NCBI GenBank assembly: GCA_964243265.1
Contig: CAXTFY010000001.1
Coordinates: forward strand, 15,556 to 79,555
DNA length: 64,000 bases
DNA from: an uncultured Acetobacteraceae bacterium
Lineage (GTDB): Bacteria; Pseudomonadota; Alphaproteobacteria; Acetobacterales; Acetobacteraceae
Direction: 5' to 3'
In this document: positions 28,472 to 55,345 of the stretch, piece after piece
Numbering within the stretch: the stretch's first letter is position 1
How the letters are laid out: each line of letters starts with the position of its first letter
The notes under the pieces: model-generated
Told to the model about the DNA's origin: nothing
Databases searched by the model: none
What the model saw: only the letters and a program-made list of their open reading frames with translations
Translations under genes and position numbers: made by a program

Positions 28472-30280
28472 ATGACCGACAAGCCCTTTTCCGTCGCATT
28501 CGACCCCGCGGCCCCGGTAGGCGAGCGTTTTGACGCCGGCTCCGAGATGCAGGCGACCTATGCGCCCACCGCCTCCGAGCTGATCCCGCGCGGCGACCTG
28601 ATGCCCATTATCGACATGATCCGCGGGGACATGGCCGAGACGGCGCTCGTAAAGGCGTCCGGGTCGATCGCGGGCTACCCTGGCGAGCACGGCCCCAAGA
28701 AGATCGACGGCCGCGGCATGACCTCGGTGTACCTCGACAATCTGCAGATTTACCTGTCGGGCAATACCTATGAAAAGCCCGCCCCGCTGGGGTTTGAAGG
28801 CCTCCGGCAGATGGTGGACCAGACCCCCATCCTGTCGGCAATCGTGATGACCCGCATCCGGCAAGTGTCGCGGTTCTGCCAGCCGTCCGAGGATGGCGGC
28901 CCGGGCTACGAGATCCGCCACGTCGATCGCAAGCACGAGCTGACGCCGGAGGAGGAAGTGAGCACGCGCCTGCTGTCTCGCTTCGTGGCCAACTGCGGCT
29001 GGGAGTTCAACCCGCGGCGCCGCAAGGCCATGAAGCGCGAGTCGTTCACCCGGTTCATGTCCAAGCACCTGCGCGATTCCTTGACTATGGACGCGGCGCC
29101 GGTCGAGACCGAGATGAAGCGCGACCGCTCGCTGGGCATCGACGGGTTCTACGCTGTCGATGGGTCCACCATTCGCCTGTGCACCGATGAGGGATATGAC
29201 GGCGACGACTCCATTTACGCCCTGCAGATGATCCAAGGTCGCATTTGCACGGCCTATACCCAGGATCAGCTTATCTATGAGGTGCGCAATCCACGGTCGG
29301 ATGTTCGCCTAGCTGGATATGGGTTGGGCGAACCGGAGCTTTTGATCCGGGTAGTGACTGGCATCTTGAATGCCATGTCGTACAACATTGCCGGCTTCGA
29401 TAACAACGCCATTCCGAAGGGCCTGTTGCACCTCTCCGGCGACTATGACCAAGCCGACCTGGCAGCGTTCAAGCGGTATTGGAACGCACAAGTAAAAGGC
29501 ATCAACAACGCCTGGTCGTTGCCGGTGATGATCTCGAAGGACCAGGAGAGCAAGGCGAATTTCGAGAGCTTCGGCGTCGAGCATAATGAGATGCACTTCG
29601 CCAAGTGGATGACGTTCCTATGTAGCATTTGCTGCGCCATCTATGGAATGTCGCCCGACGAAATAAATTTCGAGAGTTTCGCCGCGCAGAAATCGAGCCT
29701 GTCCGGCTCGGACACCGAGGAGAAGCTGACCAACGCCAAGGATAGCGGGCTGCACCCGGACATGGCGCACCTCGAAGCCGAGATGTCGGACTTCATTATC
29801 AGCGAGTTCGATGACAAATTCTGCTTCCGATGGGTCGGCACCACGCCGGAGGACGCAGACCGGGTGTGGGAAGGTAAGAAGCTCACATACACCGTCGATG
29901 AGCTTAGGGCGGAGCAGGGCTTGCAGCCGCATCCGGATGCCAAGGTGGGCGCGCTGCCGCTCAACCCCACCCTGATCGGGCCGGCGATGCAACTTAACCA
30001 GCCGCCGAAGCCGGGCGGCGACTTCGGCGGGCAGGCGCAAGAGCCAGGGCAGGACTTCGGCAACGCCGACGACGGCGACGATCCGGCCGGCGATGACCAG
30101 GCCGGGGGCGAGGCGAACGGCACCGGCGACCCGTCCCAGGCGGGGCCTGACGGCGTGCCGACCGGTCCGGCCCCTGCTGGTCCACCGGCCGCAGCCGGGG
30201 CGCCTGGCGGCGACTACGGCGGTCCTGGCAAGGGGGATTTCGGCAAAGCCATGGGCCTGACCATCTACGCGGTTGGCTAG
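28472..30280 (+). CDS. portal protein
   Basis: 602 aa, in the position after the terminase. Core region 'AIPKGLLHLSGDYDQADLAAFKRYWN...' with an acidic Gly/Pro/Asp-rich C-tail typical of portals. Confidence 0.75.
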   Translation: MTDKPFSVAFDPAAPVGERFDAGSEMQATYAPTASELIPRGDLMPIIDMIRGDMAETALVKASGSIAGYPGEHGPKKIDGRGMTSVYLDNLQIYLSGNTYEKPAPLGFEGLRQMVDQTPILSAIVMTRIRQVSRFCQPSEDGGPGYEIRHVDRKHELTPEEEVSTRLLSRFVANCGWEFNPRRRKAMKRESFTRFMSKHLRDSLTMDAAPVETEMKRDRSLGIDGFYAVDGSTIRLCTDEGYDGDDSIYALQMIQGRICTAYTQDQLIYEVRNPRSDVRLAGYGLGEPELLIRVVTGILNAMSYNIAGFDNNAIPKGLLHLSGDYDQADLAAFKRYWNAQVKGINNAWSLPVMISKDQESKANFESFGVEHNEMHFAKWMTFLCSICCAIYGMSPDEINFESFAAQKSSLSGSDTEEKLTNAKDSGLHPDMAHLEAEMSDFIISEFDDKFCFRWVGTTPEDADRVWEGKKLTYTVDELRAEQGLQPHPDAKVGALPLNPTLIGPAMQLNQPPKPGGDFGGQAQEPGQDFGNADDGDDPAGDDQAGGEANGTGDPSQAGPDGVPTGPAPAGPPAAAGAPGGDYGGPGKGDFGKAMGLTIYAVG

Positions 30281-33200
30281 GGTGGGCAAGCCCGCAGCAC
30301 CGGTGCCGGGGATCGAGCGCGGCGACCATGTGTACGTCCAGCACCCCAAGCGCGGCGCGATGGCGGTGAAGGTGTTGGCGACCGGCAAGGACGGGTTCAC
30401 CGGGGAGGACGGGGCGAAGCGGCGGCACAAGCTCAACTTCGACTCGTACGTCGGCCACAAGACGCGGATGCTGCACACGTACAACCTGGTGGACCAGGGC
30501 GCCGACGGCGCGCTGCTGCAAGACGGCCGCGGGCAGCGGCGCTACCTGGCCGGCGTGCTGCCGGCAGCCGTCCAGGACGACGGCAAGGAAGCTGACCCGC
30601 ATCCGGACGCGCCGGCGCCGGGCCGCCAGGATGATCCGCTGAAAGGTGGCCTGTCGTTGTTGAAGGCGTCCGCCCTGCAGCTACAGGCGGGGACGGACAA
30701 GGCCGGGCACGCCATCCACCGGTGGCACGGCCGCCCGGTGTTCCCGCAGCCGCAGCGGATGATGGACCCCGCCGCGCCTGACTATGCGCCGGGCGGCCGA
30801 TACCTCTCCATGCCCACGCGGGAGGACATCACGGGCCGCACGGTGGGCCGGGCGCGGATCTCGGTCGGCGACGACGGCAAGCCCAGCTTCGGCGTGTCCG
30901 ATGACCAGGTCGAGCCGGCCGCGCCGGCGCACGGCAAGGTCGTCCGCACCAACCTGTTCAAGCGCGCGGCGGGCTGGAGCTGGACGCACCGCGACGACGG
31001 CGTTCCGGACGTGAGCACCATCGTCAGCGTCGAGCACGGCGGCCAGCACCACTACACCCTAGCAGCCGATTTCCACGACGGCGTGACCCTGGCGCGCTAC
31101 CCCAAGGCCCCGAGCGAGCCGCGGCTTCGGCCGACCACGCACGGGCACATCACGATGCCCGGGCATGAGGTCGGCCGCATCTCTGTCCGCGGCCGGGAGC
31201 ACCCGGTCCATTCGACCATCGCGGTCCACCGCGGCGGCGGCGCCTCGCTTGCAAAGTCATTTCACCTCGCCGGCCTGGTGCCGGTCCAGGTCGAGGAGCT
31301 ATCCGACATGCCCGGCCCTATGATCCTGTTCACGAAGGCCATGGGCACGCCCGTTGCCAATCGGCCGGGCTTGGCCTTGAAGCGCGTGACCGACAAGGGG
31401 GGGCACCAGACCCAGCGGTGGAGCAAGACGGGCGTTGACATGCCGGCCGGCAAGAAGCCGGCCGCCGGCGAACCGGACGCGCCACCTCCGGCCCCGATGA
31501 AGCACGGCGACGTCGTGAGCTTCCGCCATGGCGAGGTGCAGGGGCAGGGCAAGATCGTCGGCAGCGGGCAGGACGGCGTGACGGTGCGCGACGGGGAGCG
31601 TGAGCACCAGGTCCGGCACGAGCACCTTGAAGGCAAGGCGCCGGACGCGCCGGCGAAGGTGCTGCAGCGGCCGGACTACGCCCCGCGCGCGACGGGGGAG
31701 GACGATAAGAAGTACCTCAAGCGGACCGCCAGCTCGATCCCGGACCCGGAGCACCTGCCGGAGGAGCACGACCGGTATTTCAACCAGGTCGAGGGCGGCA
31801 AGACGGTCCCGATGGACCAGCTTGTGAGCACCAAGTCCGATGCGGAGAACGAACAGGGCGGCAACAACTCGCCGAAATTCATGGGCGCGGCGTACCATGG
31901 CGTTGTGGCCAAGCGTGACCCCATCACGGTCAAGCAGCGGCCGGACGGCAAATACGATGTCATGGACGGCAACGGCACGTACACCGGGGCCAAGAAGCAC
32001 GGTTGGAAGAACCTGCCAGTTCGCGTCGAGGGCGGCGGCGGGGATGATGCCGGCGGAGCTGGCGCGGCGCCGCCCAACCCTCCGCCACTGTTCCCGGCGG
32101 CCGAGGTTGCTGACCTGCCGGAGCTGGGGGAGCAGAAGTTCAACACGCAGGACGCGCTGTACAAGGCGAGTGCTGAGTCGCTGGAGCACCTGAAAACCTG
32201 GCTGAACCGCGGCAAGGGCGTCTGCTCGAAGATGGGTTTCGAGACGATGACGTGCTCGCCCGAGGATGCGGACCTCACCAAGCCCGGCGGGATGTTGTTC
32301 GTTGCGCCATTGAAGGGTGCCAAGCGCGCGAAGGAGAAGGTGGACTCCGCCTATGACGGCGACTGGTCGAAGCTGCGCGACGTGGTGCGCTGCTCCATCG
32401 CCGTGGACAGCATGGACGACATCACCGACGCCCTGACGCAGTTGAAGGCGTCCGGGATGCTGCTGGCGCAGCAGCCGAAGGACAGGTTCCACCGGCCGCT
32501 GCCGGTGGGCTACAGGGACGTGCAGCTCATCGTCCGCTTCCCGAACGGGTCGTTGGGCGAGGTGCAACTCCACCTCAAATCCATGCTGATCGCCAAGGAT
32601 GAGGGCCACAAGCACTACGAAACCATGCGGACGCTTGAAACCAGGCCGCCGGGCGAATGGAACACGGAGGAAACCACCTCGTATGACGGCGCGGTGGAAG
32701 CATCCAAGGCAATCTACGGCCAGGCGTGGGCGAAGTCGGCCGGCAAGCCCGCGGACAAGGGCACGCCGATGGCCAAGGCATTGAAGGTGTCGCCCGGCAT
32801 GGCGGCGGCGTGGGAGCACTATGACCTGGACGGCGCTAAGTACCGCCGACCGGGGCCGCGCGGTGCGATCACCGACGTTCTGAACGGCGATAAATGGGCG
32901 CCGTTCACCGGCGACGACGCGACCGAGCCGCACGTCTTCGGCGACCCCATTGATGACCCGCTGGCAGGCGGCGGCGGCGAGCCTGATGGCAGCGGGGGCG
33001 AGCCGGACACCGGCGGCGGGGGTGAGCCGATGGCCAAGGCGTTGAACCAAGCGGCTCACCGGGCCATGCCGATCCTGTTCTTGAAGGCGACGATCCCCGG
33101 TGGTGCACGCGGGGACCTGTTCGCGCAAAGCGTTCAGGTTGCCGGGCATTCCACCGCGGCCGGAACCTATGTGGCGCCCTACCAGGCCCAGCGCATGAAG

Positions 33201-34187
33201 GCGCCGGACGCGCCGCGGCCGATGCCGAAGGACGACGGCGCGTGGCACACCGCGATGCAGGCGAAAATGAAGGGGCTGGGCGACCACGCGCTGCACTACA
33301 CCGCCAACGACGCACGCCTGGCGGCGGAGGCGGCCGAGACTTTTAGCGGCGCCGGCGCCGGCCGGCATCGAGACGAGGCGAGCTACGCGCGGGCGGAAAT
33401 CGTCGCGCGCCGGCGGGGTGAAAGCACGGCTCCGCCGTCGTTCGCGGCGTTGGAGCAGGCGGCGGGCGGGCGTGCCATGGCGGCCCGCGCGTGGGCCAAG
33501 CTACGCCACAACCCCATGCCGTCCGCGCCGCAAGGGCTAGGGGCCTGGGGCCACGCCACGGGCCAGGTCTTCACGGATGCGGAGCACGACGCCAACGTGC
33601 GCCAGTGGGACCAGCAGGAAGGGGCTACCAGCCTGGCGGCGGCAGCCCAGCCCGCCATGGACATGCGCCCGGTGCCCGTCGCACCAGCGGCGCCGGAGCT
33701 GGTGCACGCCTCCTATGGCCTGCCGGAGGCCTCCACCTTCCACGAGGGCAAAGGGCCGCTAGGGCGGGGCCGCTGGCGGGCGGACGTGCCGGGGCATGGC
33801 TTCGCACCGTTCGGCGCGAACCGGGCGGAGGCGGCCCGTGCGGCGCTAACGTTCGTGTCCAATTCGACCCACAACAAGGACGCGGCCACGGCCCGGCATC
33901 ACCTGGACAAGGACATTGCCATCCGGGTGCGGGCGGGCCTGGATCTGGATGACGCCGACCTGCGGCATCTCGGCTTCCGGCCGGGCAAGGCGTCCGAGTT
34001 TTCCTACCTGTCGCCCGTCATGCAACGCCTGTTCGGCGTCCCGGCGCGACACGTCCGGGAGGCGATGGGCGATGCACTGCGCCGGACCCATTCCGAGATG
34101 GGGGCACCCAAGGATGTGGCCTCGCCGACGAAGGCGCTAAAGCGGGTCGCCGAGTACCTGGCCCGGGTCGAGAAGCTGCGCGGCTGA
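30273..34187 (+). CDS. 1304-aa polyvalent virion-type protein (ParB-like plus RelA/SpoT-like NTase plus three ILFLKA-type modules)
   Basis: ParB/Srx-like 'PITVKQRPDGKYDVMDGNGTYTGAKKHGWKNLPVRV' (about 31800-32030). RelA_SpoT-like 'LRDVVRCSIAV...GYRDVQLIVRFPNGSLGEVQLH...HKHYE' (about 32180-32640). Modules at aa 127, 350 and 932. Start is TTG 30273 or GTG 30282. Confidence 0.7.
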   Translation: MARVGKPAAPVPGIERGDHVYVQHPKRGAMAVKVLATGKDGFTGEDGAKRRHKLNFDSYVGHKTRMLHTYNLVDQGADGALLQDGRGQRRYLAGVLPAAVQDDGKEADPHPDAPAPGRQDDPLKGGLSLLKASALQLQAGTDKAGHAIHRWHGRPVFPQPQRMMDPAAPDYAPGGRYLSMPTREDITGRTVGRARISVGDDGKPSFGVSDDQVEPAAPAHGKVVRTNLFKRAAGWSWTHRDDGVPDVSTIVSVEHGGQHHYTLAADFHDGVTLARYPKAPSEPRLRPTTHGHITMPGHEVGRISVRGREHPVHSTIAVHRGGGASLAKSFHLAGLVPVQVEELSDMPGPMILFTKAMGTPVANRPGLALKRVTDKGGHQTQRWSKTGVDMPAGKKPAAGEPDAPPPAPMKHGDVVSFRHGEVQGQGKIVGSGQDGVTVRDGEREHQVRHEHLEGKAPDAPAKVLQRPDYAPRATGEDDKKYLKRTASSIPDPEHLPEEHDRYFNQVEGGKTVPMDQLVSTKSDAENEQGGNNSPKFMGAAYHGVVAKRDPITVKQRPDGKYDVMDGNGTYTGAKKHGWKNLPVRVEGGGGDDAGGAGAAPPNPPPLFPAAEVADLPELGEQKFNTQDALYKASAESLEHLKTWLNRGKGVCSKMGFETMTCSPEDADLTKPGGMLFVAPLKGAKRAKEKVDSAYDGDWSKLRDVVRCSIAVDSMDDITDALTQLKASGMLLAQQPKDRFHRPLPVGYRDVQLIVRFPNGSLGEVQLHLKSMLIAKDEGHKHYETMRTLETRPPGEWNTEETTSYDGAVEASKAIYGQAWAKSAGKPADKGTPMAKALKVSPGMAAAWEHYDLDGAKYRRPGPRGAITDVLNGDKWAPFTGDDATEPHVFGDPIDDPLAGGGGEPDGSGGEPDTGGGGEPMAKALNQAAHRAMPILFLKATIPGGARGDLFAQSVQVAGHSTAAGTYVAPYQAQRMKAPDAPRPMPKDDGAWHTAMQAKMKGLGDHALHYTANDARLAAEAAETFSGAGAGRHRDEASYARAEIVARRRGESTAPPSFAALEQAAGGRAMAARAWAKLRHNPMPSAPQGLGAWGHATGQVFTDAEHDANVRQWDQQEGATSLAAAAQPAMDMRPVPVAPAAPELVHASYGLPEASTFHEGKGPLGRGRWRADVPGHGFAPFGANRAEAARAALTFVSNSTHNKDAATARHHLDKDIAIRVRAGLDLDDADLRHLGFRPGKASEFSYLSPVMQRLFGVPARHVREAMGDALRRTHSEMGAPKDVASPTKALKRVAEYLARVEKLRG

Positions 34188-38250: not shown

Positions 38251-38790
38251 ATGGCGATCGTCACCTTCCAAAACCACCCGGCGTCCCTCCAGCGCCCGTC
38301 CGAGGGGCAGTTGCAGGCGGGCAACTATGCCAAGGCACACCGCAGCTTTCAGGGGTTGCCGGTCACGATCGAAAACCGGCGCGGCTCGGTCCGCTCCGGC
38401 CGGGACCGCGGCGGGCACGAGTGGGCCGTCTCGATGCAACACGACTATGGCTACGTCCGGGGCACGTTGGGCGTGGATGGCGACCATTTCGACGTGTATC
38501 TCGGGCCGGACGACGAGGCGCCGACGGCCTACATCGTCACCACCATGGCGCCGCCGGACTTCCGCCAGACGGACGAGCAAAAGGCCATGCTCGGCTTCCA
38601 GTCCGAGGAGCAGGCGCGTGCGGCCTACCTGGCGCACTATGACAATCCTGCCTTCCTTGGCTCCGTCCGCGCAATGCCGATGGCGGAGTTCAAGGCCCAG
38701 CTCGCCACCACGCGCGAGCATCCGCGGATGCTGAAGGCCGCTGCCGCCGGGCTAGTGCTGTTCCGGACTGCACATCCTCCGGTTGAATGA
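38251..38790 (+). CDS. inorganic-pyrophosphatase-fold-like protein
   Basis: 'VTIENRRGSVRSG...HDYGYVRGTLGVDGDHFDVYLG' parallels the PPase 'IEIP.G...NYGYI..T...DGDP.DV' pattern. The C-terminus 'GLVLFRTAHPP' looks like a truncated ILFLKA module. Confidence 0.45.
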   Translation: MAIVTFQNHPASLQRPSEGQLQAGNYAKAHRSFQGLPVTIENRRGSVRSGRDRGGHEWAVSMQHDYGYVRGTLGVDGDHFDVYLGPDDEAPTAYIVTTMAPPDFRQTDEQKAMLGFQSEEQARAAYLAHYDNPAFLGSVRAMPMAEFKAQLATTREHPRMLKAAAAGLVLFRTAHPPVE

Positions 38791-44254: not shown

Positions 44255-47200
44255 ATGCTCCAGCACCCGCCCGTCGTCCTGTTTCTCAAGGCCACCATCC
44301 CGGGCGGTGCAGGCGACCTGTTCGCGCTGCCGGTCCAGGTTGCGGGCTACACGACACCTGACGGCACCTATGTTGCCCCGCACACGGCCATCCGGCACAA
44401 GCGGACCACCCTCCCGGCCGCCGCGCCAAAGGCCGCAGCGGTGGACCTGTTCGCCCATGCCGATGCGGCTGCTGCCCCCCCCAAGCCTGCGGGCAAAGCC
44501 AAGCCCAAGGCTGACACGGGGCCGGACCTTTTCAGCGCCATCTTGCACCCACCGGCGCCTGCCAAGCCTGCCAGCGAAGTTGCGGCCGCAACCGCAAAGC
44601 CGCCCGCGGTAGTAGAGTCCACACCCGCCTCCGGTCCGGCAGGGCTACGCACGGCAGCCGTTGGCGACGTGCTGGAAATCGACCTGCCTTACAAGAGCCG
44701 GTCGGTGCGCGCCCGGGTGCGGGTGGTCGAGCCGACATACCGGGATCACCGGGGCAGCGTCGTCCTGCTTGAGAAGCCGCCCCGCACGACGCTGGAGGTC
44801 GGCCGGACGCACCACGTCGATCAAGCCGTGGTCAATGCTGGGACGCTGCTTTCCGTCACCCCCGCCCTCACGGCTGCCGAGCTGGCGCAAGTTGCGTCGG
44901 CGGTCGCGCCAGCCCCCGCCCCGGCGCAAGCTGCGCCGGTCGGCGCACCTGCGGAGCTGGCAACCTTCGGGGTCGAGGCCGGGATCTCCGAGCCTGCCCG
45001 TCGCGCCCTGAATGCCGCCGCTGTCGCGGTGCTGACCAGCAAGCCCGATGCGGACATGACGGACGGCGACCGCGCGGTGCTGGCGCGCTACAGCGGCACC
45101 GGGGGATGCGGTGCCAGTCGCAACGAGTTCTACACCACGCCGGCGATCGCCCGGGCGATGTGGAGTCTGTTGGACCGCGCCGGGTTCCACGGCGGCGAGG
45201 TCTTGGAGCCGAGCTGCGGCACCGGCGTCTTCTTGCACACCGCGCCCCCTGGCGCGCATGTCGTCGGCGTCGAGATGGACCCGATCGGCGCCCGGATCTC
45301 CGGTATCCTGCACCGCCCGGCCGGGCATGAGGTCAATGCCGGAACGCTGGAAGCCTTCGCGCAAGGCGATGGGCGCCTGTTTGATGCGGTGATCGGCAAC
45401 CCGCCCTTCGGCATCCGCGGCGGCTCGGCCGGCGACGACAAAAAGAGCATTGCCAGCGCCGAGGACTATTTCCTCGATACCGCGCTGGACAAGCTCCGGA
45501 GTGGCGGCCTTCTAGCCATGATCGTGCCAACTGGCGTCATGGACGGCAAGGCCGGGCGCGGCTTCCGCGAGGCCCTGCTGTGCAAGGGGGAGTTCCTTGG
45601 TGGGTCGCGTTTGCCAAACACCGCATTCGAGGCGTCGCATACCGCTGTGACGTCCGACGTGCTGCTGTTCCGCCGGCGTCCGCAAGAGGTCGCCGGCGCG
45701 CTGTCAACCGTGGATCAGGACGTGCTGCAGCAGCTCGGCGTATGGGATGAGGAGTTCTTGTCCGGGTCCTATTTCGTCGCCGGCCGCGGCGCCGCCAACA
45801 TCCACGGCAACTTGGAACCCGGGTGGCGCGAAAAAGCCAACATGGGCCACGACATCACGGTGTCTGGTTCGATGGTGGGTGTGCCCGACGCCGTGCGTGA
45901 CATGCCGATCGAGGCGCCGGCGCCGTCTCCGGACATGGCAACCGTGCTCGCAGCCCTCGGCGACGACGATACGGCCAAGCGTCGGGCGGTCTCGGCCGCG
46001 CTGCGCCCTCCCTATCAAGTGGCCAAGCTCGGCGACGTGCAAACCGTGGACGGCATCCGGTACGTCCTGCAAGGCGAGCCGCCGCGGTGGCACCGCGCCG
46101 ACGAGGACCTGCCGCCGGCGGTCGCCGACGCGCTCGGCATCGCCGAGGTGCTGGAGGACCTGCACGAGGGCCGCGCGGCTGACCCGGCGATGGCCCGCGC
46201 GGGCCTGATCGAGGATCTTGACGCCTACGTGGGCAAGCACGGCACGCCAGGCCGCAGCAAAGCCCTGCGCGCCTGGCTCGCCAAGCCCTCTATGCCCAAC
46301 CTGGACGGGGTCGGCGGCAACGAGCACGGCGAGCGCGTCAACAGTGCCTACCGTCGCGTTGCGCGGCTGCTGGGCGCCGTCGGCGACGATGGCGGCTACT
46401 CCGACCTCGTGACCGGCGTGACCCGCCAGGCGGACGCGGCAAGCCTGGATACGATGGCCACCCGCCTGTCCCTCGAACGCGGCGGCTTCACCGCCGAACA
46501 GCTCGCCGCGGTCACGGGGGGGACAGCCGACCAGGTGCTAGACCACCTGTTCGCGTCCCCGGCCTACGCGGTCGAGCCGGACGGCCGCACTTGGAGCACG
46601 TTGGACTCCTACGTGTCCGGCGCCCTGTGGCCGAAGTTCGATGCCGCCACCGAAGCGGCGGCGACGCCCGGCGCCGACCCGGCGCTGGTGGCGAAGTGGG
46701 CCAGCCAAGCCGCGGTGCTGGACGCGGCGATCGCGCCGGCCTCGCTGGAGGACGTGGAGATCGCGCTCAACAGCGGCTTCATCCAGCCGGCGGTCATCAA
46801 TGCCTGGTTCCAAGCCCAGGAGGAGGCGCGTCGCGCCAAGCAGGGCAGGTATGGCCCGCAGTTCAACGTGGCCGAGCTGGAATACAAGGACGCGCTGTGG
46901 TCGGCCAAGGACGGCCGCGGCGTCAACGTCGGCGACACCCGGCTGATCCTCACCTTCCTCAACCGGACCGGCGTGCGCAAGGTGGACCGCGCAAAGCTGG
47001 TGCGGCTGAATGCGGAGTTTGCCGATTGGGTGCGCGGCTCGGACCTGCGGCAGTCCGTCGAGGACGGGTATAACCGCACCCACAAGGGTTTCATTGCGCC
47101 GGTGTTCTCCGACAAGCCCATTGACATACCCGGTCTAAACCCGCCATTCTCGGTTAATAATTACCACTGGTCGGGCCTTCGCTGGGCAATGCAGGCGGGC

Positions 47201-50200
47201 AGCGGCATTGTTGCCGATGATGTCGGGTTGGGCAAAACGCCTCGTGGCCTGATGCTTTCTAAACTTATGCAATCGACCGGTCAGGCGAAAAAGCCGGTTA
47301 TTGTCGTTCCGAAGTCGGTACTGGCGAATTGGGTCAAGGAAGCCGAGCAATGGTTCCCTGGCGCGAAAATCCTGGTCATCGGCGAAACCTACAAGACGGA
47401 CAAGGCCGGCAACGTTACCTCGAAGTCTGACGATGCCGAGACGCGGCAGGAGAAGTTCCACAACCTCCAACAAAACAGCCATGACTTCGTTTTCATCTCG
47501 CAACCCGCGTGGAACGAGCTGGACGTTAGCCCGGACCTCAAGGCGGGCTACCAGAGCGACGATTTCTGGACCCAACGTGGCGAAGCCATGGCCAACGCCA
47601 AGGCCTCCAAGATCGAGCGCGCCCGCGCGGCCGATGAACAGCGCGTTGCGGTCAAGGAGTTCGAGAGCCGGGAAGGCACGGTTTACTTTGACGAGTTGGG
47701 CATAGACGCGCTCATCATGGACGAGGGCCACGCCTATAAAAACCTGTATTCTGCCCGTGCTCGGTTCGGCGAAAAGCCGAAGTTCCTGGGCGGCTCCGGC
47801 GAAAGCAACCGGGCACAAGATACCTACTACAAGACCCGGGCATTGCGGTCCAAAAACGGCGGCAAGGGCGTTTTCATGCTGACGGCCACGCCCACGAAAA
47901 ACTCGCCGTTGGAAATTTACTCGATGCTGGCGCAGATCGCGCCGGAGGCCTTCGAGAAAATGGGCATCCGCAACTCGGAAGCCTTCCTAGACCGGTTCTG
48001 CGAGTTCTCGATGGACATGGTGCCGACCATTGATGGCGGCGTGGACGAGGAGCTAGTGACCAGCGGCTTCAAGAATTTGGACGAGCTGCGGGAGGTGATG
48101 AAGCGATACATCGACCGGCGGACCGCGGCTGACGTGGGCCTGGTGATCCCCAAGGGGCTGCCGGTCGATCACTACGTCGATATGTCCCCGGCGCAAGAGG
48201 AAGCCTACCAGGAGTTGCGGGCGCAGTACGCGGCCGTCGCCGACGGCACCGCCGACGCCACCGGCGAAAGCCATATCTTCTCGATCATGAATCGCATGGG
48301 CAAGGCGTCGCTGGACCTGTCCCTGCTTGACCCGTCCTACCATGGCGAGCGTGCGCCGAAGGTCGATGCCTGCGTTGATGCGGCGATCGAGCACGCCGGC
48401 GACGGCGGCCAGATCATCTTCTGCGACGCCAACGACATGCACGAGCGGATTGCCGCCTCCCTGGTCGCCCGCGGCGTGCCGCGCAACCGCATCGGCATCA
48501 TCAACGCGACGGCCGCCGAAGGGTCGGCCGCACGGCAGAAAATCTGCGACCAGTTCAACTCGGGCAAATTGGGCTACGTGATCGGCAACACGGCGACGAT
48601 GGGCGAGGGCGTGAACCTGCAAAAGGGCACCTCGGACATCCATCACCTCGATCTGCCATGGGAGCCGGCGTCCATGCACCAGCGCAACGGCCGCGGGGTC
48701 CGGCAGGGCAACAAGAAGGGCAGCGTGCGCCTGCATACCTACCTCGCCAAGGGCAGCTTCGACGGCTACCGCCTCGCCACGATGATGGCGAAAAAGGACT
48801 GGCAGGACTTGCTGTGGAACGGTGGCGACAAGGTCGAGAACCTGTCCCGCTCCGGCGCAAACTCCCGCTCGGAAGTGCTGATTATGATGTCCGCCAACCC
48901 GGACGAAGCCCGCAAGGCGTATGATGCGAACAAGTCAGCCGCGGTGGAGCGCCGGCGTGCCGAGGATCGCGGCCAGGCGATCGCGGCATTCGACCGCTTC
49001 GATAAGATGGGCCGCGCGCTGGCGAAGCTGCGCGCGGAGCAGGACCCCTTGAAGGTGCAGGCGGGCGCGATCGCGCGCCTGGAAAAGAAGCGGCAGGTGC
49101 TTCATGGCGCGCTGCGCGACCTGCCGGCCTTCACGCATAAGGATCTGCTGGACCATCCGCACCCGGCCGTCATCGAGCCGGTGACAAACCATGCGTGGAC
49201 GCGCGGGCGCGGCCTCGTGCTGCACGGCGGCAGCGAGGGGCCGGCCAACTGGAGCGAGGACGAGTCGCGCTGGGTGGTCACGGGCGTCGATGCCGACGCC
49301 GGCACGGTGTCGGTGCGGGGCTACGGCGGCAACTCGCACTCCGACCGGCCCACCCTGGACTTCGATCTAAAGGACATGAAGGCGGGCGTGACCCCATTCG
49401 ACTACAGCGAGAAGGCCGAAAAGGCGGAGGTCGCCGACGCCGACACGGCGTACCGCACCATGGTCGGACAGCGGACGGCCGCCAAGATGGCCAACCCCAA
49501 CGGGCTGGGGCTGGTCGAGATGCGCGACCTGCCGCCCGACGTGCTGGCCAACCAGGCGGACCTGGTGCGTAGCCACATGCGCCTGCAGATCGAGCGTTAC
49601 CGGGACGGGCACAGCCAAGTCTATGGCCTGACCAACCACGAAGGCCGGCCGGTGGCGGCGCAGAGTTTCGAGGTGCGCAAGCTGCTCGGCGACCACGACC
49701 TGATCCTGCCGACGCCGGACGGCCGCGCCAAGGCAGTCGAGGGCTATGTCGATGCCGCCATGCGGCGCGGCGTCGTCACGCCGACCCAAACCGGCACGCG
49801 GATGCGCAGCTACAACGGCGCCAGCATGAGCACGGCCATCAAGCCAACCTATGAAGGGTTCGAGCACAGCACCAGCACCAGCGGCAATCCCTGGGAACAC
49901 GTCATCAAGGACGTGTTCGGGGAAGACGCGACCGCCGCGCAAGCCGCCGTGCGGGAGGAGGTCAAGCGGCGCATCGACTCTGCGCCGACCTTCCGGGATG
50001 CCGTGATCGCTGCGACAAAAGGGGTGGAGGTGCCGGCCTATGGCTGGGGCACCACCAGCAAGGGCAACCCGTGGCCGGCCGACGTCGTGCGCAGCCTAGC
50101 GGCCCGGGCGGCGAAGGATAAGGTGCTGGATTGGGACATGCACAAGGCGGCCAAGCCGTCGCAAAGCAGCTACAAGCCGGACCTGCATCCGGAGCTGTTG

Positions 50201-50329
50201 AAGCACGGCGGGGTCAACTACGCTGCGGATATGTCGCAATACGGCAATAGCCGCTCGCACCGGGTCCGTGACTTCCTGGAAGCCATCTCACATCCGGCGG
50301 ACAAAGCCGCCCTGAAAGCGGCCCCCTGA
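44255..50329 (+). CDS. 2024-aa DarB-like polyvalent protein: ILFLKA module plus N6-adenine methyltransferase plus SNF2-type helicase
   Basis: Methylase motif I 'LEPSCGTGVFL' and motif IV 'GNPPFG' (about 45200-45412). SNF2 motifs 'DDVGLGKT' (about 47215), 'MDEGHAYKN' (about 47720), 'LTATPTKNSPLE', and helicase-C 'GEGVNLQ...HHLDLPWEPASMHQRNGRGVRQGN'. Confidence 0.85.
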   Translation: MLQHPPVVLFLKATIPGGAGDLFALPVQVAGYTTPDGTYVAPHTAIRHKRTTLPAAAPKAAAVDLFAHADAAAAPPKPAGKAKPKADTGPDLFSAILHPPAPAKPASEVAAATAKPPAVVESTPASGPAGLRTAAVGDVLEIDLPYKSRSVRARVRVVEPTYRDHRGSVVLLEKPPRTTLEVGRTHHVDQAVVNAGTLLSVTPALTAAELAQVASAVAPAPAPAQAAPVGAPAELATFGVEAGISEPARRALNAAAVAVLTSKPDADMTDGDRAVLARYSGTGGCGASRNEFYTTPAIARAMWSLLDRAGFHGGEVLEPSCGTGVFLHTAPPGAHVVGVEMDPIGARISGILHRPAGHEVNAGTLEAFAQGDGRLFDAVIGNPPFGIRGGSAGDDKKSIASAEDYFLDTALDKLRSGGLLAMIVPTGVMDGKAGRGFREALLCKGEFLGGSRLPNTAFEASHTAVTSDVLLFRRRPQEVAGALSTVDQDVLQQLGVWDEEFLSGSYFVAGRGAANIHGNLEPGWREKANMGHDITVSGSMVGVPDAVRDMPIEAPAPSPDMATVLAALGDDDTAKRRAVSAALRPPYQVAKLGDVQTVDGIRYVLQGEPPRWHRADEDLPPAVADALGIAEVLEDLHEGRAADPAMARAGLIEDLDAYVGKHGTPGRSKALRAWLAKPSMPNLDGVGGNEHGERVNSAYRRVARLLGAVGDDGGYSDLVTGVTRQADAASLDTMATRLSLERGGFTAEQLAAVTGGTADQVLDHLFASPAYAVEPDGRTWSTLDSYVSGALWPKFDAATEAAATPGADPALVAKWASQAAVLDAAIAPASLEDVEIALNSGFIQPAVINAWFQAQEEARRAKQGRYGPQFNVAELEYKDALWSAKDGRGVNVGDTRLILTFLNRTGVRKVDRAKLVRLNAEFADWVRGSDLRQSVEDGYNRTHKGFIAPVFSDKPIDIPGLNPPFSVNNYHWSGLRWAMQAGSGIVADDVGLGKTPRGLMLSKLMQSTGQAKKPVIVVPKSVLANWVKEAEQWFPGAKILVIGETYKTDKAGNVTSKSDDAETRQEKFHNLQQNSHDFVFISQPAWNELDVSPDLKAGYQSDDFWTQRGEAMANAKASKIERARAADEQRVAVKEFESREGTVYFDELGIDALIMDEGHAYKNLYSARARFGEKPKFLGGSGESNRAQDTYYKTRALRSKNGGKGVFMLTATPTKNSPLEIYSMLAQIAPEAFEKMGIRNSEAFLDRFCEFSMDMVPTIDGGVDEELVTSGFKNLDELREVMKRYIDRRTAADVGLVIPKGLPVDHYVDMSPAQEEAYQELRAQYAAVADGTADATGESHIFSIMNRMGKASLDLSLLDPSYHGERAPKVDACVDAAIEHAGDGGQIIFCDANDMHERIAASLVARGVPRNRIGIINATAAEGSAARQKICDQFNSGKLGYVIGNTATMGEGVNLQKGTSDIHHLDLPWEPASMHQRNGRGVRQGNKKGSVRLHTYLAKGSFDGYRLATMMAKKDWQDLLWNGGDKVENLSRSGANSRSEVLIMMSANPDEARKAYDANKSAAVERRRAEDRGQAIAAFDRFDKMGRALAKLRAEQDPLKVQAGAIARLEKKRQVLHGALRDLPAFTHKDLLDHPHPAVIEPVTNHAWTRGRGLVLHGGSEGPANWSEDESRWVVTGVDADAGTVSVRGYGGNSHSDRPTLDFDLKDMKAGVTPFDYSEKAEKAEVADADTAYRTMVGQRTAAKMANPNGLGLVEMRDLPPDVLANQADLVRSHMRLQIERYRDGHSQVYGLTNHEGRPVAAQSFEVRKLLGDHDLILPTPDGRAKAVEGYVDAAMRRGVVTPTQTGTRMRSYNGASMSTAIKPTYEGFEHSTSTSGNPWEHVIKDVFGEDATAAQAAVREEVKRRIDSAPTFRDAVIAATKGVEVPAYGWGTTSKGNPWPADVVRSLAARAAKDKVLDWDMHKAAKPSQSSYKPDLHPELLKHGGVNYAADMSQYGNSRSHRVRDFLEAISHPADKAALKAAP

Positions 50330-50728: not shown

Positions 50729-53700
50729 ATGCCCTTCTCGTCGCGCATCCTGTTCCTGGCGTCCACGGCGCCGCTCGGCAAGGCGCTGGCGGCCGGCGAA
50801 CGCTGGATAACCGTCCGTCCCAACGGCCCCGGCACCCAGGGCCACCCCCTGCTGATCAAGCCGGCCGGCGATGGGTCGATGAAAGTCATCGGCGGCGCCG
50901 GCGGCAGCTTGAACCATCTGCGGCTGACCGGAGTAAAATCCGAGGACGCCTACAAAGAGGAAGCCCGGCAGCGCAGCAAGAGCCACAAGGAAGCCCGCAA
51001 GCGACAGGTCGAGGGCGACAAGGCACTTGGCCTGCATGGGACCAAGACGGTTGCACGGGAGGCGGTGAAGGAACAGCTCCGCAATCACGAGCGCGCGTTC
51101 GTGAAAACGGTCGGGGAGGCGTTGGGCTGGAAGCCGGAGGCGATGCGCTTCCCGTCGGAGGCATTCGCCAACGCGACGCCGGAGGCACAGGACCAGGCGG
51201 CCAAAGAGCACGGCCGCAAGCTGTTCGAGCACGCGCGGGCGGCCGTCGATCACCAGCGGCAACGCCTGGTGCAAGATGCCGAGCTGCGGGCCGAGGCTGG
51301 GCTAGGCGAGGTGCCACTAACGGCCGCGGCGCCGGAGGACCTGACGGTACAGGATCTCTCGCCGGTGGACGACGCGACAAAGGGCCTGGGGTTCGCGCCG
51401 GAGTATGACAAGCGCGCCGAAGCGGCGGGCCTGACGCCGGAGGAGCGCCAGGAGGAAGCGGCGACCTTCAAGCCGGCGCCAGTCAAGCCGCCGGCCGAGG
51501 GCGAACCGACGCCGGAGGAGCGCCGCAGGGCCAAGGGCGAGGCGATCACCAAGGAGCTGGAGGCCATCCGCGAGCCTGGCCCGAAGGTGGACCGGCACGC
51601 CGTCGTGGATGCAAAGAAGGCGGTCGAGCTGCTGCGCGCCGAAAAGGCGCTGAAAGCCGCCCGGAAGTCAGCCGCGGGGCACAACAAGGCGATCGACGCC
51701 GCGAAGGAGCAGGTGGAGCCGGCCGCCTATCCCGTGGAGGTTGGCGGTGCGGCGCCGGACAGCGCGATCACGGCCGAGCTGGAAGGCGACCTACGCACCC
51801 TGAAGACGCGCGCTTTCCTTGATGAGGTCGGCAAGGTGTCGGGCGGGGAAGCATTGGGCCGGCACATCGGGGTCGGGGCCTACAACAGCATCAACGCCCT
51901 GGCGCTCGCCGCCGGCGGCGCGGCCCTGATGGACCGGTCCGCGGTGGACGTGCTGGGCATCGCCGGCAGCGCGCAAGTGCTGGCCCGGCGCCTGGCATCC
52001 GACCTGACGCCGGAGGAGCTGCAGCACACCCAGGAAGCGATGGCCAGCTTCCATCTGGACCACTACATGCCGGCGTCGGACAAGGCGCTACGGGAGGCCC
52101 GTAGCTGGCACGAAATGGCGCAGGAGATCGAGCTAGGCGAAGCCGCCTCCGGCGCTGACCTGGCCGTGGCCCAGGAATTGAACGCCAAACGGCGGGAGTT
52201 CACCGCCGCGGCCGAGCGCACGTTGGGCACGGCGCTCGGCGAGATGGAAGCGAACGCCGCGCTGGTGCTGGCGCTGAAGCAGCCGAAAAAGGAACAGGTG
52301 CAGGTCAGTCTGGGCAAGGTCAGCATCGAGTCCGCGATCACCAGGTTGCGCGCCCTGGGGTTGGAGCGGGGTGAATACTCCCTCGAAAAGGTCGGGGTTA
52401 GCACCATGCTGGTGGTCGGCGGTGCCGGCATGGATCGCCTGGCGCAGCCGATCGCGCGGGAGGACCTGGCGCGGGTGCGTGACAGCCTGGACATCATCGA
52501 GGGGCGCCGGGACGAAGCCGACTGGCTGCCGGACGGCGTCGCCCGGCGGCCGGAGGGGGCCATGAACGTGGTGCCGGGCACCGCCGCGCGCCTGGCGCAG
52601 CCCTACCAGGCCGGGTCCGGCCCGGATGGCACCCGGCGGGCGGTGGAGGACTACATCGGCGGGCGCGCGGCCGACGGGGACAGCCCGGCGGAGATCGTGG
52701 CCTCGCTGCTGTCCGAGGAGACGCTGAAGGCCAGCGGCGACCGCCGCGGCTTCATGGCGGCCGTGGACAGCCTGGCGCCGCTGTATGACGGGGAGGGCAA
52801 GATCGTCCGAGCCGAGGCGCACACGGCCACCTTCGAGCGGCTCGCGGACGCATTCACGCAGCGGCGGTATGGCGGCAAGCTCGCCCCGATCCACAAGCAA
52901 GTGTTTCCCGTGGATCAAACGGCGGTCAACAGCCTCCATGCCGCCCTGGCCAAGCACCCCGAGGGGGTCGCCGCCTTCAAGCCGATCGCCGACCTGACGC
53001 CGCAGGACCAGGGCAGCCTGCGGGCCGCCTTCGGCGAGGAGTTCGGCCGCTCGGACCCGGCAGCCGAGGCGATGCGGGCGGAGCTGGACAAGCTGGCGGC
53101 CAGCGAACCCGCCCGGGAGGTGTCGGATATGTTCGGAACGGGACCAAACCCGTTGCACACCGACTGGCGCGCGAACCGGGACGGGCTGGCCGAAAAGCTG
53201 AATGCGGCCTCGATGACGTGGGGCAAGTACTGCGAGGTCTTGGGCAGCCCGGCGAACGCCTACCGGGCGATGCAGGACGTGGTGCGCAGCAAGGTGCTGC
53301 GGGAGTTCGCCGACGGCCAGAACCGCGCCAGCCCGGACGCCGCCCTGAAGGTGGGCCGGACAGTCATCGCGCACGACCTGAACCACCTCGATGCGCTGGA
53401 CCCGGTCGCGCGGGAAAAGCGCCTGGCGGCGCACCGGGCGCTGGCGGACAGTCTGCGCAACCGGGTGGCGGGGCAGTACTCCGCCGGGTCGGTGTCGGAC
53501 AAGTTGGACGCCGAACGTGCTCACGAGGAAGCGTTCGGGCAAAGTCAGATGGGGCTGTTCGGCGCCAGCTCGCCGCCGGACGCGGCCGATGATGCGGCGC
53601 CGGAGCCTGCCAAGCCGCCGGCACTCGGCGAACGCTATACCATCGGCCACCAGGCGGAGCGCCAGGTCGCCGGCATGATGCCGATTGTCGGGAGCAACTT

Positions 53701-55345
53701 CCGGCCGGGCACGAAGCCGCCGGCGATGTGGGCGCCCTCGATGTCGGGCAAATACGTCGCCAGACAGCGCGCGGTGAAGCTGATCGCCCAAAACCGCAAG
53801 GTGGAGTTGGGCATGGGCGTCGGATCGGGCAAGACGGCGATCGCGTTGTCCGCCTTCACGCACCTGCACGCGGCCGGCAAAGCCAAGCGCGCGCTGTTCG
53901 CCGTGCCCTCGATCGTCCAGGGCCAGTTCCACGGGGAGGCTTTGACCCTCTTGGAGGCTGGCAAGTTCAAATGGCACTGCGACCCGGGCGCCAGCCGGGC
54001 GGACCGGATCGCGGCGTACAAGGACCCGGACACCCATTTCAGCGTGGTCACGCATCAGGCCCTACGGGATGACCTGCTGCACCTGGCGGCGAAGCAGGAC
54101 GGCAGCACCTCGGATGCCGTGGTCGCCAAGCTCGGCGCCATGAAGCCGGCCGAACGCCAGGCCTTCATGCGCGGCGTGATGGACGCGGAAGGCATGTCGC
54201 ACGATTTCCTCGGCGTCGATGAAGGGCACTCGCTGCTCAACCGCGCGGGCAAAGAGGATTCGCGCATGGCAACGGTGCTCGATGCCGTCGGGCACGGCAT
54301 GTCCACCCACGTTTCGATGACCGCCGACCCCGTGAAAAACGACGCGACGGAGGCGTTTGACGTGCTCGCCAAGATGGACCCGGTCCGCTACTCCGACCGG
54401 GCGGCCTTCGTGCGGCGGTACGGCGTGGACACCGCGGCCAGCAAGGAAGGACTGCGGCGCGAAATGGCGCGGCACTTCTACACCGGGTCGATCGACCCTG
54501 GCGTGAAGGCCGAGAAGACCGAGGTCAAGGTTGACCTGCACCCAGCCCAGCACGCCCAGCTCCGGACGATCGACGCCGCCGCCAGCAAGGCGCGGCTCGC
54601 GCGCATGAAGGGCGAGGTGGACCTGCCGGCCCTGAAAACGCTGTCCCCGGGATCGTTCGCGGGGGTCGAGGAAGCCAAGCACGCCGAGGTCGCAAAGAAC
54701 CTCAACCGCAGCATCGGCATCCTCGCTAACACCGCGGTTCACCATGCGATCAGCGGTTCGTCCAAGACGGATGCCTTGGCGAAGATCGCCGGCGCACGCA
54801 AGGGCCGGCCGGGGGTGGTGTTCTGTCACCACCTCGATCGAGTGCGGGAGATCGAGGCGCGGCTGAAGGCGGACGGGCACCGGGTCGTCACCCTCACGGG
54901 CGGGGACAGCAGCAAAGAAAAGGACCGCAAGAAAGCCGAATTTCAGGGCGGCCAGCACGACGTCATGGTCATGTCGGACGCCGGCGCCGTCGGCGCCAAC
55001 CTGCAGCGGGGCAAGTGGCTGGCGCAATACGACACGCCCATGACCGCCATGGTCCACGCCCAGCGCAACGGGCGCATACACAGAATGGGGCAGACCGAGG
55101 ACGTGGAGCTGCTGGACCTGGTCGCCGACCACCAGGCGGAGCGGCGGGCGCGCAAGCGGCTGGCGGAGAAGTACGAGCTACGTGGGATTATGACGTCCTC
55201 CCTCGATGGGTTGGACGATACCGGGGTTGCGGGCTACCTCAACCGAGCGCGGACCGGCCAGCAGGAAGCGGCGTTGCCGCTGCACCCGGCCGCCCCGGGG
55301 GAGCTGCCGCCGATCGTGGAGGACGAACAGCGGTCAATGTTCTAG
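50729..55345 (+). CDS. 1538-aa SF2 (DEAD/SNF2-like) helicase-containing polyvalent protein
   Basis: N-terminus 'RILFLAS...GERWITVRPNG..GHPLLIKP'. Long charged coiled region. Helicase motifs 'GVGSGKT' (about 53823), 'VDEGHSLLN' (about 54218) and helicase-C 'GAVGANLQ...QRNGRIHRMGQ'. Confidence 0.8.
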   Translation: MPFSSRILFLASTAPLGKALAAGERWITVRPNGPGTQGHPLLIKPAGDGSMKVIGGAGGSLNHLRLTGVKSEDAYKEEARQRSKSHKEARKRQVEGDKALGLHGTKTVAREAVKEQLRNHERAFVKTVGEALGWKPEAMRFPSEAFANATPEAQDQAAKEHGRKLFEHARAAVDHQRQRLVQDAELRAEAGLGEVPLTAAAPEDLTVQDLSPVDDATKGLGFAPEYDKRAEAAGLTPEERQEEAATFKPAPVKPPAEGEPTPEERRRAKGEAITKELEAIREPGPKVDRHAVVDAKKAVELLRAEKALKAARKSAAGHNKAIDAAKEQVEPAAYPVEVGGAAPDSAITAELEGDLRTLKTRAFLDEVGKVSGGEALGRHIGVGAYNSINALALAAGGAALMDRSAVDVLGIAGSAQVLARRLASDLTPEELQHTQEAMASFHLDHYMPASDKALREARSWHEMAQEIELGEAASGADLAVAQELNAKRREFTAAAERTLGTALGEMEANAALVLALKQPKKEQVQVSLGKVSIESAITRLRALGLERGEYSLEKVGVSTMLVVGGAGMDRLAQPIAREDLARVRDSLDIIEGRRDEADWLPDGVARRPEGAMNVVPGTAARLAQPYQAGSGPDGTRRAVEDYIGGRAADGDSPAEIVASLLSEETLKASGDRRGFMAAVDSLAPLYDGEGKIVRAEAHTATFERLADAFTQRRYGGKLAPIHKQVFPVDQTAVNSLHAALAKHPEGVAAFKPIADLTPQDQGSLRAAFGEEFGRSDPAAEAMRAELDKLAASEPAREVSDMFGTGPNPLHTDWRANRDGLAEKLNAASMTWGKYCEVLGSPANAYRAMQDVVRSKVLREFADGQNRASPDAALKVGRTVIAHDLNHLDALDPVAREKRLAAHRALADSLRNRVAGQYSAGSVSDKLDAERAHEEAFGQSQMGLFGASSPPDAADDAAPEPAKPPALGERYTIGHQAERQVAGMMPIVGSNFRPGTKPPAMWAPSMSGKYVARQRAVKLIAQNRKVELGMGVGSGKTAIALSAFTHLHAAGKAKRALFAVPSIVQGQFHGEALTLLEAGKFKWHCDPGASRADRIAAYKDPDTHFSVVTHQALRDDLLHLAAKQDGSTSDAVVAKLGAMKPAERQAFMRGVMDAEGMSHDFLGVDEGHSLLNRAGKEDSRMATVLDAVGHGMSTHVSMTADPVKNDATEAFDVLAKMDPVRYSDRAAFVRRYGVDTAASKEGLRREMARHFYTGSIDPGVKAEKTEVKVDLHPAQHAQLRTIDAAASKARLARMKGEVDLPALKTLSPGSFAGVEEAKHAEVAKNLNRSIGILANTAVHHAISGSSKTDALAKIAGARKGRPGVVFCHHLDRVREIEARLKADGHRVVTLTGGDSSKEKDRKKAEFQGGQHDVMVMSDAGAVGANLQRGKWLAQYDTPMTAMVHAQRNGRIHRMGQTEDVELLDLVADHQAERRARKRLAEKYELRGIMTSSLDGLDDTGVAGYLNRARTGQQEAALPLHPAAPGELPPIVEDEQRSMF

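Follow-up and report, generated by a model that had tools for sequence, protein, structure and literature searches.

The window analysed here, a 64-kb stretch of contig CAXTFY010000001.1 from an uncultured Acetobacteraceae bacterium, is derived from a PHB04-like myophage. It holds a terminase gene, a portal gene, a conserved gp6-like head gene and an array of putative effector genes, which begins between the portal gene and the gp6-like gene and continues beyond the latter to position 55345 (Table 1). Four proteins of this array share a module of about 45 amino acids (aa), which is the subject of this analysis. As the G+C content of the window is high (62-72%), real genes were chosen by their G+C content at the third codon position. 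The TTG start of the gene for p309 overlaps the stop codon of the p430 gene, and no tRNA or Rfam elements were found in the window.

Table 1. Genes and module copies of the array and its surroundings (window coordinates; / marks a predicted cut; HMM, hidden Markov model; ORF, open reading frame)
Feature	Position (nt)	Strand	Remarks
Portal protein, 602 aa	28472..30280	+	Pfam Phage_portal; 51-58% identity with the portals of PHB04 and IMG/VR relatives
p1304, 1304-aa polyvalent protein	30273..34187	+
Internal module copy in p1304, aa 934-976, ILFLK/ATIPGGARGDLFAQSVQVAGHSTAAGTYVAPYQAQRMK	33072..33200	+	HMM E = 5e-30
p335, 335 aa	34192..35199	+	Family HMM E = 0.11
Block of four or five small ORFs, ~1.7 kb	35196-36922	minus
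Conserved head gene, 403 aa, gp6-like	37013..38224	+	tblastn, 40-46% identity to relatives
Stand-alone InPase domain of the polyvalent-protein type	38251..38790	+	Pfam PF18823 E = 1e-42
Two fibre-like/decoration-like genes, 162 aa and 873 aa	38849..41962	+
p430, 430-aa cargo	41998..43290	+	Predicted cut K12/A13
Module in p430, aa 8-49	42019-42144	+
p309, 309-aa Mom-like/XF1762-family cargo	43287..44216	+	Predicted cut K7/A8
Module in p309, aa 3-45	43293-43421	+
p2024, 2024-aa DarB-like N6-methylase and SNF2 helicase	44255..50329	+	Predicted cut K12/A13
Module in p2024, aa 8-49	44276-44401	+
Ulx-like protein, 109 aa	50329..50658	+	PHROG 1629 E = 2e-10
p1538, 1538-aa helicase protein	50729..55345	+	Pfam

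A sequence-only reading of this DNA had described four near-identical copies of the module, three of them N-terminal and one inside p1304. The copies were found at these sites. An HMM built from them and run against the six-frame translation of the window recovered all four with E = 1e-28 to 1e-30, and the next segment scored E = 0.44. The term near-identical was too strong, as the copies share 66-74% of their amino acids and 62-75% of their nucleotides, with 22 invariant columns across the four. Since identity in the DNA is only 62-75% and different codons are used at 32-62% of the conserved residues, selection acts on the peptide and not on the DNA. This bears directly on the idea that the repeats are a feature of the DNA, namely a recent duplication or a cassette recombination site whose peptide has no function. 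The copies do lie at gene starts and junctions of a variable array, exactly where gene fusion and fission occur, but the peptide is kept in 250 database clusters over wide G+C ranges and a nucleotide search gave no near-identical relatives. Such an origin is hardly credible, and it is effectively refuted by the codon differences.

The module begins with a leader, I-L-F-L, followed by an invariant K-A, a GGAxG-DLF segment and the hairpin sequence V-x-V-x-G-H/Y ... G-x-Y-V-A-P-H/Y-x-A-x-R-x-K. In the four window copies the DLF motif occurs as RGDLF, AGDLF, HADLF and AGDLF. Each copy is followed by a linker rich in Pro, Ala and Lys and then by a distinct downstream region, as had been described; the linker of p2024 carries two extra DLF motifs (nt 44444-44452 and 44525-44533). 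When the structure was predicted with AlphaFold2 from an alignment of 100 sequences (mean pLDDT 86), residues 22-48 formed a long β-hairpin or meander, the leader was given no secondary structure, and DLF stood at the beginning of a predicted β-strand. The module is composite and has three separable parts: leader plus K-A, D-L-F and hairpin. In relatives of lower G+C content a short form without the GGAxGDLF insert, leader-K/[A/S]-H-V-x-G-Y-T-[RK]-K-D-G-T-[YF]-V-K-P-H..K-R, was found on NUDIX and other cargos. In phage ECML-606-1 a 287-aa protein starts with MTKLFLK/AQVKGYRRSDGVWVKPHD and a giant protein of 2253 aa with MLVLAK/ALNQ.

A HMMER profile of the four copies was searched against 1.84 billion cluster representatives and matched 250 of them at E ≤ 1e-3, of which 83 reached E ≤ 1e-10. 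The full module was present in 118 of the 150 matches listed. In 96 of these 118 it started no more than 30 residues from the N-terminus, usually at residue 2-8, in proteins of 89-2341 aa. The remaining 22 carried it internally; most were portal-adjacent proteins of the p1304 type with the module at about residues 570-800, and three (169-285 aa) were unclassified. Among 100 diverse copies the Lys was invariant, the next residue was Ala in 99%, D-L-F was kept in 94-99%, and several Val, Gly, Pro and Arg positions were conserved at about 90-97%. The cargo p430 is identical to database representative P0001, for which an exact look-up found no encoding contig.

The sequence-only reading had been unable to place the module in a named family, and this was borne out: there was no match in Pfam (even at E ≤ 10), in NCBIfam or among PDB sequences. 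Apart from the Mom-like cargo of p309, the four proteins with the module received no assignment from PHROGs, and the hairpin alone yielded only sub-threshold noise in Pfam (DUF5666 and Transposase_24). The module is not described in the paper on polyvalent proteins and matches no LPD or other Pfam family from that work (PMC5512222); the string LFLKA is absent from the relevant phage literature. Searching GenBank phages with the module by tblastn gave nothing at E ≤ 1. Word-indexed protein searches, for which the module alone and the 100-sequence profile are too short as queries, gave no match or a single fragment. Pattern scans detected three or four loci in IMG/VR and a single one each in genomes and in JGI metagenomes. 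The search was therefore anchored on the portal gene, which gave 80 IMG/VR loci; 24 of them had module matches, all on the strand of the portal gene.

The hydrophobic run straight after the initiator Met could also be taken for a secretion or membrane-anchor signal, in which case the proteins would be exported and not packaged. The run comprises only four or five residues, though, with neither a positively charged n-region nor a lipobox, and in proteins of the p1304 type the element is also found internally, where domains join. As the cargos are moreover cytoplasmic DNA and nucleotide enzymes, export is very improbable; the secretion signal was rejected on the shortness of the leader and its internal occurrences.

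The relatives of the window are myophages of about 90-95 kb, including Bordetella phage PHB04 (L001), Pseudomonas phage Dolphis (L006), E. coli phage ECML-606-1 (L007) and others, and the hosts of the lineage range from Enterobacteria to alpha- and beta-proteobacteria. In Dolphis and ECML-606-1 the portal gene, the gp6-like gene and the genes for the head protease, the scaffold and the capsid are adjacent, with no intervening array. An effector array after the portal gene is present in PHB04, in a Rhodovarius prophage and in IMG/VR contigs.

A candidate site of the head protease was derived from the proteins of these relatives. The motif [LMFIV]-x-K-[AS], written below as φ-x-K-[AS], occurred 6-7 times per protein in three scaffolds of about 220 aa, against 0.5-0.7 expected (0 of 5,000 shuffles, p < 2e-4), and 5-6 times per head protease of PHROG 1028, against 0.8-0.9 expected (p ≤ 4e-4). 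The form [LMF]-x-K-[AS] was enriched about 10-fold in the scaffold and head-protease proteins, and the strict form [LMF]-x-K-[AS]-hydrophobic/His was absent from the tested sheath, tail, baseplate and terminase proteins. In the capsid protein of 15 relatives a variable N-terminus of 30-40 aa ends at a conserved [E/A]-L-x-K/[A/S]-L-[E/Q]-A. DFGK[A/S] was present in most of the 80 portal C-termini examined, roughly 10 residues before the end; the tail of the window portal reads DFGK/AMGLTIYAVG, with the predicted site at K592. The gp6-like protein has an N-terminal site, K25, which is kept in relatives. Among the window ORFs, 6 of the 13 in the head block had a site within the first 26 residues, compared with 1 of the 39 others (Fisher p = 5e-4).

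As [LMF]-x-K-[AS] is enriched in the scaffold and the protease and marks both the capsid-propeptide boundary and the portal C-terminus, it is likely to be the cleavage site of the head protease, an enzyme whose assignment rests on its PHROG 1028 match (E = 4e-70). Cleavage at LFLK-A had been proposed from the letters of the window, and the independently derived φ-x-K/[AS] motif coincides with the invariant K-A of the module, which speaks for such a cut. The motif also predicts, from sequence statistics, the cleavage specificity of the PHROG-1028 head-protease family.

The candidate site also explains the places where degenerate copies of the module had been suspected: the N-termini of p335 and p1538, residues about 127 and 350 of p1304, and the C-terminus of the InPase. 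With an HMM of 100 family sequences no module match was obtained at the N-terminus of p1538, at either position of p1304 or at the C-terminus of the InPase, and that at the N-terminus of p335 was borderline. What did stand is a common leader/φ-x-K-A element at these places (K5, K18, K131, K355 and K162). Eroded whole modules were therefore rejected, and stand-alone leader/cleavage sites explain these segments better. In p335 the leader VILLK/A (K5) is followed by a degenerate hairpin, and a second site, K329, lies 6 aa from the C-terminus; the protein has a weak queuine-tRNA-ribosyltransferase-like match (PHROG 887, E = 2e-4). The leader of p1538, RILFLASTAPLGK/A, contains K18, the sole φ-x-K-[AS] site among 88 lysines (4.4 expected), and is followed by neither DLF nor hairpin; likewise the PHB04 orthologue begins with MKPILFLK/AS and has the leader and K-A only. 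The C-terminus of the InPase, PRMLK/AAAAGLVLFRTAHPPVE, is a truncated leader, and in the relative L003 the protein runs on at this point into a full module, so that the InPase is a module fusion there and stands alone in the window.

The cargos attached to the module differ widely. Pfam domains on family cargos included N6-MTase with SNF2, LPD1, LPD3, PBECR1/3, ART-PolyVal, DarA_C, Acb1, zeta toxin, InPase, RelA_SpoT, M74 peptidase and inteins, and NUDIX domains were also present; most of the 74 small family members had no Pfam domain. In the window, a polyvalent repertoire consisting of the InPase (PF18823), a RelA_SpoT-like region, a methylase-helicase dyad and a Mom-like protein lies between the portal and the helicase. 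The Mom-like p309 matched PHROG 1384 (E = 4e-24) and the XF1762 family (NCBIfam NF045478, E = 2e-37). No assignment was given by Pfam or PHROGs for the p430 cargo or the C-terminus of p1304; against PDB sequences p430 showed only a weak match to SkgA (E = 4e-4), and the PDB sequence search with p335 and the C-terminus of p1304 gave nothing useful.

Two SH3-like repeats and a weak RelA/SpoT-like region (aa 685-781) were recognized in p1304; the RelA_SpoT match (E = 9.5e-4) was under the Pfam cut-off, and that of the PHB04 orthologue was over it. The protein carries seven φ-x-K-[AS] sites. Segments bounded by PMAK/A sites are separate genes in PHB04, as is the domain of about 70 aa between the two PMAK/AL sites K835 and K922. 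Ahead of the internal copies in the family lies a further site of the scaffold type, P-M-A-K-[A/S]. From this arrangement p1304 is predicted to be a polyprotein.

The sequence-only reading had likened the set of effectors to the P1 Dar proteins. One of them, p2024, proved to be a true homologue of P1 DarB, with BLASTP matches of E = 1e-47, 2e-40 and 2e-26 and the Pfam domains N6_Mtase, Eco57I, SNF2 and Helicase_C, and it is followed directly by the gene for the Ulx-like protein, as in the darB-ulx order of P1. The direct BLASTP match of that protein to P1 Ulx was weak (E = 6e-4); its PHB04 orthologue matched PHROG 1629 with E = 7e-26. Homology between p2024 and DarB starts at aa 231 of p2024, corresponding to aa 29 of DarB. 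In P1, an N-terminal signal of 30 residues from DarB suffices to load a reporter into the heads (PMC9024508). As the homology begins at DarB aa 29, the module and its linker occupy the place of this signal. DarA_C domains among the cargos of other family members are a further likeness to the P1 system. BLASTP of the window proteins against P1 DarA, DdrA and DdrB gave no match (Hdf was not among the queries).

No capsid, protease or tail-tube gene had been recognized between the portal gene and position 55345, and by tblastn neither these nor any scaffold or other tail gene were found in the whole 64 kb. The head-shell genes of this phage must be located outside the window. On the 3' side of p1538, where PHB04 has its protease, scaffold and capsid genes, minus-strand genes without assigned function were found (55342-61230), followed by a ParA/MinD-like ATPase at 62974-63675 on the + strand (Pfam CbiA/ParA/VirC1). 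These genes may point to a phage that lives as a plasmid-prophage, or to rearrangement of the genome.

The gp6-like gene had been labelled as a MuF head-morphogenesis gene. Its product is homologous to Dolphis gp6 and to a 386-aa protein of PHB04, and the gene adjoins the portal in all relatives. The protein may be MuF-like, but it had no Pfam or PHROG match, and no Phage_Mu_F domain was found in p1304 either. The C-terminal string HPHCRGRW of the orthologues in PHB04 and Dolphis, spotted by eye, bears no more than a resemblance to MuF. A likeness to MuF-fused toxins had also been suggested; a Phage_Mu_F carrier domain was not found.

Of the two genes described as fibre-like or structural, the 162-aa protein was assigned to tail-fibre PHROGs (E ~ 1e-6); for the 873-aa protein there was only a sub-threshold match to F5_F8_type_C_2. 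Repeated weak discoidin or F5_F8-type-C-like segments are present in the latter, which contains only 2 lysines. Neither gene encodes a leader or an N-terminal site. The two proteins are probably not internal cargo and may be head decoration or fibre proteins. A similar group of Gly-rich or fibre-like genes was seen at the corresponding place in L003.

Between p335 and the gp6-like gene, the + strand head/effector array is split by the minus-strand block at 35196-36922. The G+C content of the block is lower (60-67%), and it encodes a 73-aa protein with a ribbon-helix-helix-like N-terminus. Because PHB04 and L003 are contiguous at this point, the block looks like a moron insertion. Elsewhere in the window, an endolysin-like gene (16966-17796; PHROG 1224/2860, filed under 'head and packaging') has a φ-x-K-[AS] site four residues from the C-terminus of its product, which may be a further processed, virion-associated protein.

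Taken together, the module is best explained as a composite N-terminal tag for head-internal, injected effectors of PHB04-like myophages. The sequence-only reading had suggested that a common module targets a swappable set of injected effectors to the capsid or serves in their ejection or processing; this is supported by the homology to DarB and Ulx, the N-terminal position, the placement in the head block and the K-A motif. That the leader with K-A serves as a targeting propeptide processed by the head protease is judged fairly probable. The leader, consisting of Met, 0-8 residues and four or five hydrophobic residues (I-L-F-L), would be the capsid-targeting propeptide and would dock the cargo to the scaffold core or the protease while the prohead assembles. 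The head-maturation protease, with a specificity of [L/M/F]-x-K / [A/S], would then cut at Lys-Ala and free the cargo within the head, and in polyproteins such as p1304 cuts at the PMAK/A and LFLK/A junctions would separate the domains. The GGAxG-DLF segment, the long β-hairpin and the basic Pro/Ala/Lys linker would stay on the mature protein, where they could aid retention on the packaged DNA or exit with it, or bind a host partner. Finally the DarB-like methylase-helicase with Ulx, the Mom-like enzyme, the RelA/SpoT-like region, the InPase and other cargos would leave with the DNA, in the way that P1 DarB is believed to be ejected.

Several points weigh against this explanation. Packaging, targeting, cleavage and injection, like the protease specificity, are deduced from where the module sits, from its genomic context and from the statistics of the motif. 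Relatives supplied the candidate site; in the window, tblastn found no gene for a protease, scaffold or capsid. The PHROG 1028 head protease has no relative in Pfam or PDB, and for this reason no experimental precedent for its specificity was found. Some leader/hairpin genes of PHB04 and of the relatives of lower G+C content are not in the head block but 4-10 kb upstream of the portal gene. Targeting by the leader alone would leave the very strong conservation of the retained DLF and hairpin unexplained. P1 DarB does not carry the module, which was also absent from DarA, DdrA, DdrB and Ulx. No common packaging signal has been found in the P1 Dar proteins (PMC9024508), whereas one tag is found here on many cargos.

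The retained part of the module allows two further explanations. According to the first, the hairpin and the basic Pro/Ala/Lys linker form an escort that binds DNA or the portal, so that the whole module is the determinant of packaging and ejection. The module ends in a conserved basic patch, R-x-K-R, followed by AKP/PAPK-type linkers, and the hairpin, which the predicted cut would leave on the protein, is kept even in the short forms without DLF. The leader without hairpin in p1538 and in the PHB04 helicase indicates that the two parts are separable. No likeness to known DNA-binding folds was detected, however; the best Foldseek match of the module in PDB had E = 1.5, and the PDB profile search gave nothing below E = 0.5. 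The hairpin also occurs as tandem repeats in Ser-rich bacterial proteins with signal peptides, which favours a generic mini-fold over a DNA-binding one. An escort function is accordingly regarded as unlikely. The hairpin-only sequence in these Ser-rich proteins, V-x-V-x-G-Y-T-R-x-[DN]-G-T-Y-V-A-P-H-T-R-S, was repeated 2-10 times, often behind a signal peptide and once beside a protein kinase domain (P0022, P0032, P0065, P0091, P0095, P0108, P0128, P0149).

According to the second, DLF is a β-sliding-clamp-binding motif by which, together with the extra Q-x-D-L-F motifs of the linkers, DNA-acting effectors are tethered to the host or phage clamp after entry, a role compatible with the leader/cleavage model for the first 10 residues. 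The consensus of clamp-binding motifs is Q-φ-x-[L/M]-[F/L], and QLDLF is the strongest binder (PMC11139829). The tag resembles the clamp motif QL[SD]LF in its x-x-D-L-F core, in the Gln at position 1 in many relatives and in the multiple copies within disordered linkers of DNA enzymes. Gln at -4 from Phe was found in short-form relatives (QPDLF, QGGLF, QLDLF and QHALF; in PHB04 QLALF and QGSLF). In the 150 aa after the module D[LM]F occurred 30 times compared with 2.0 expected, with Gln at -4 in 9 of the 30 against a background of 3.6%, and extra D[LM]F motifs were commoner among the large enzymes acting on DNA (10 of 21, compared with 17 of 94). NUDIX cargos have C-termini of the type ...KLF or ...SIF. 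One relative's DarB-like protein has QLGLF, the clamp-binding motif of E. coli Pol II, followed by PDLF and ADMF. QLDLF, QLGLF and QLALF are textbook forms of the motif.

On the other side, the four copies of the window have neither the Gln nor an aliphatic residue at position 2, each of which adds much to the affinity (PMC11139829), and in the long form DLF starts a predicted strand of the folded hairpin instead of lying in a free loop. Clamp docking is on these grounds a minority explanation. DLF is also present on cargos without an obvious role at DNA, and the two or three copies in a protein would be just as consistent with avidity for a capsid or scaffold partner made of several subunits. 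Similar GDMF motifs occur in the P1 head protein DdrB. Altogether, clamp binding as the function of DLF is considered quite unlikely. The short-form NUDIX proteins (L028, L066, L062, L034) all end in ...G-K-L-F, ...A-S-I-F or ...K-W-I-F, so that a hydrophobic residue followed by Phe is conserved at their C-terminus. In P1 DdrB (L008 24542-27529, minus strand) the linker at aa 354-445 contains AQGDMFSE, ALGDMFGG and SGGLFES, which resemble both the D[LM]F of the module family and the clamp-binding QADMF of E. coli Pol III alpha.

One of the known systems closest in principle to the proposed composite tag is the capsid-targeting sequence (CTS) of T4, a short N-terminal propeptide common to the unrelated cargos IPI-III and Alt; it docks them in the core of the prohead, and the head protease clips it off at a simple motif before the cargos are injected (PMC9026906, PMC7411985). 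In the case of T4 gp21 and the giant-phage proteases, one motif marks the capsid and ejection propeptides and, in T4, also the protease itself (PMC9026906, PMC7411985). The tag of the present family is similarly shared N-terminally by unrelated proteins (96 of the 118 full modules within residues 1-30). The module has no sequence similarity to the T4 CTS or to its L/I-x-E site. T4 cuts after L/I-x-E with a gp21-type protease, whereas the predicted cut here is at φ-x-K/A/S by the PHROG-1028 protease. Since the leader is I-L-F-L-K-A and the site is basic and not acidic, the tag would be an analogue of the T4 CTS and not a member of that class. It also differs in the additional conserved 35-aa DLF/hairpin segment, predicted to stay on the mature protein, and in being strongly conserved and easily searchable, while the T4 signal is a short, poorly conserved peptide. 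P1 differs as well, its capsid protein being cut after Glu (E120/S121).

In SPN3US and phiKZ, head and ejection proteins carry N-terminal propeptides that are cut by the prohead protease at a common motif and have been proposed to target the proteins into the prohead (PMC7411985). Those propeptides are long (111-130 aa), with a T4-like motif and without a conserved module. With the polyvalent proteins (PMC5512222) the family shares the methylase-helicase dyad, the InPase, RelA/SpoT, PBECR, ART and LPD domains as well as the predicted packaging and processing into separate effectors. Processing is predicted here to be the work of the head protease and not of embedded metallopeptidases, and many members of the module family have a single cargo, unlike the giant polyvalent fusions.

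What is new here is a conserved, searchable composite tag with a proposed role in loading and processing, together with a predicted new protease specificity. In a widespread myophage lineage, it seems to mark all the proteins that are loaded into the head and injected. More than 100 distinct cargo clusters carry it, most of them without a Pfam domain, and would represent a large, for the most part uncharacterised repertoire of injected phage effectors if the proposal is true. It is improbable that the tag, as a portable loading system of the whole lineage, also docks the injected effectors on the host sliding clamp or replisome through the retained DLF/Q-x-D-L-F; if it did, one 45-aa module would govern the way into the virion as well as the destination in the host. 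If confirmed, the tag would provide a sequence rule for finding injected anti-defence effectors, with Acb1, DarB-like, Mom-like, NUDIX and zeta toxin proteins and many unassigned ones already tagged. It would also give a predicted φ-x-K/A/S specificity to an uncharacterised head-protease family, and could be used as a compact means of putting heterologous proteins into phage heads for delivery.

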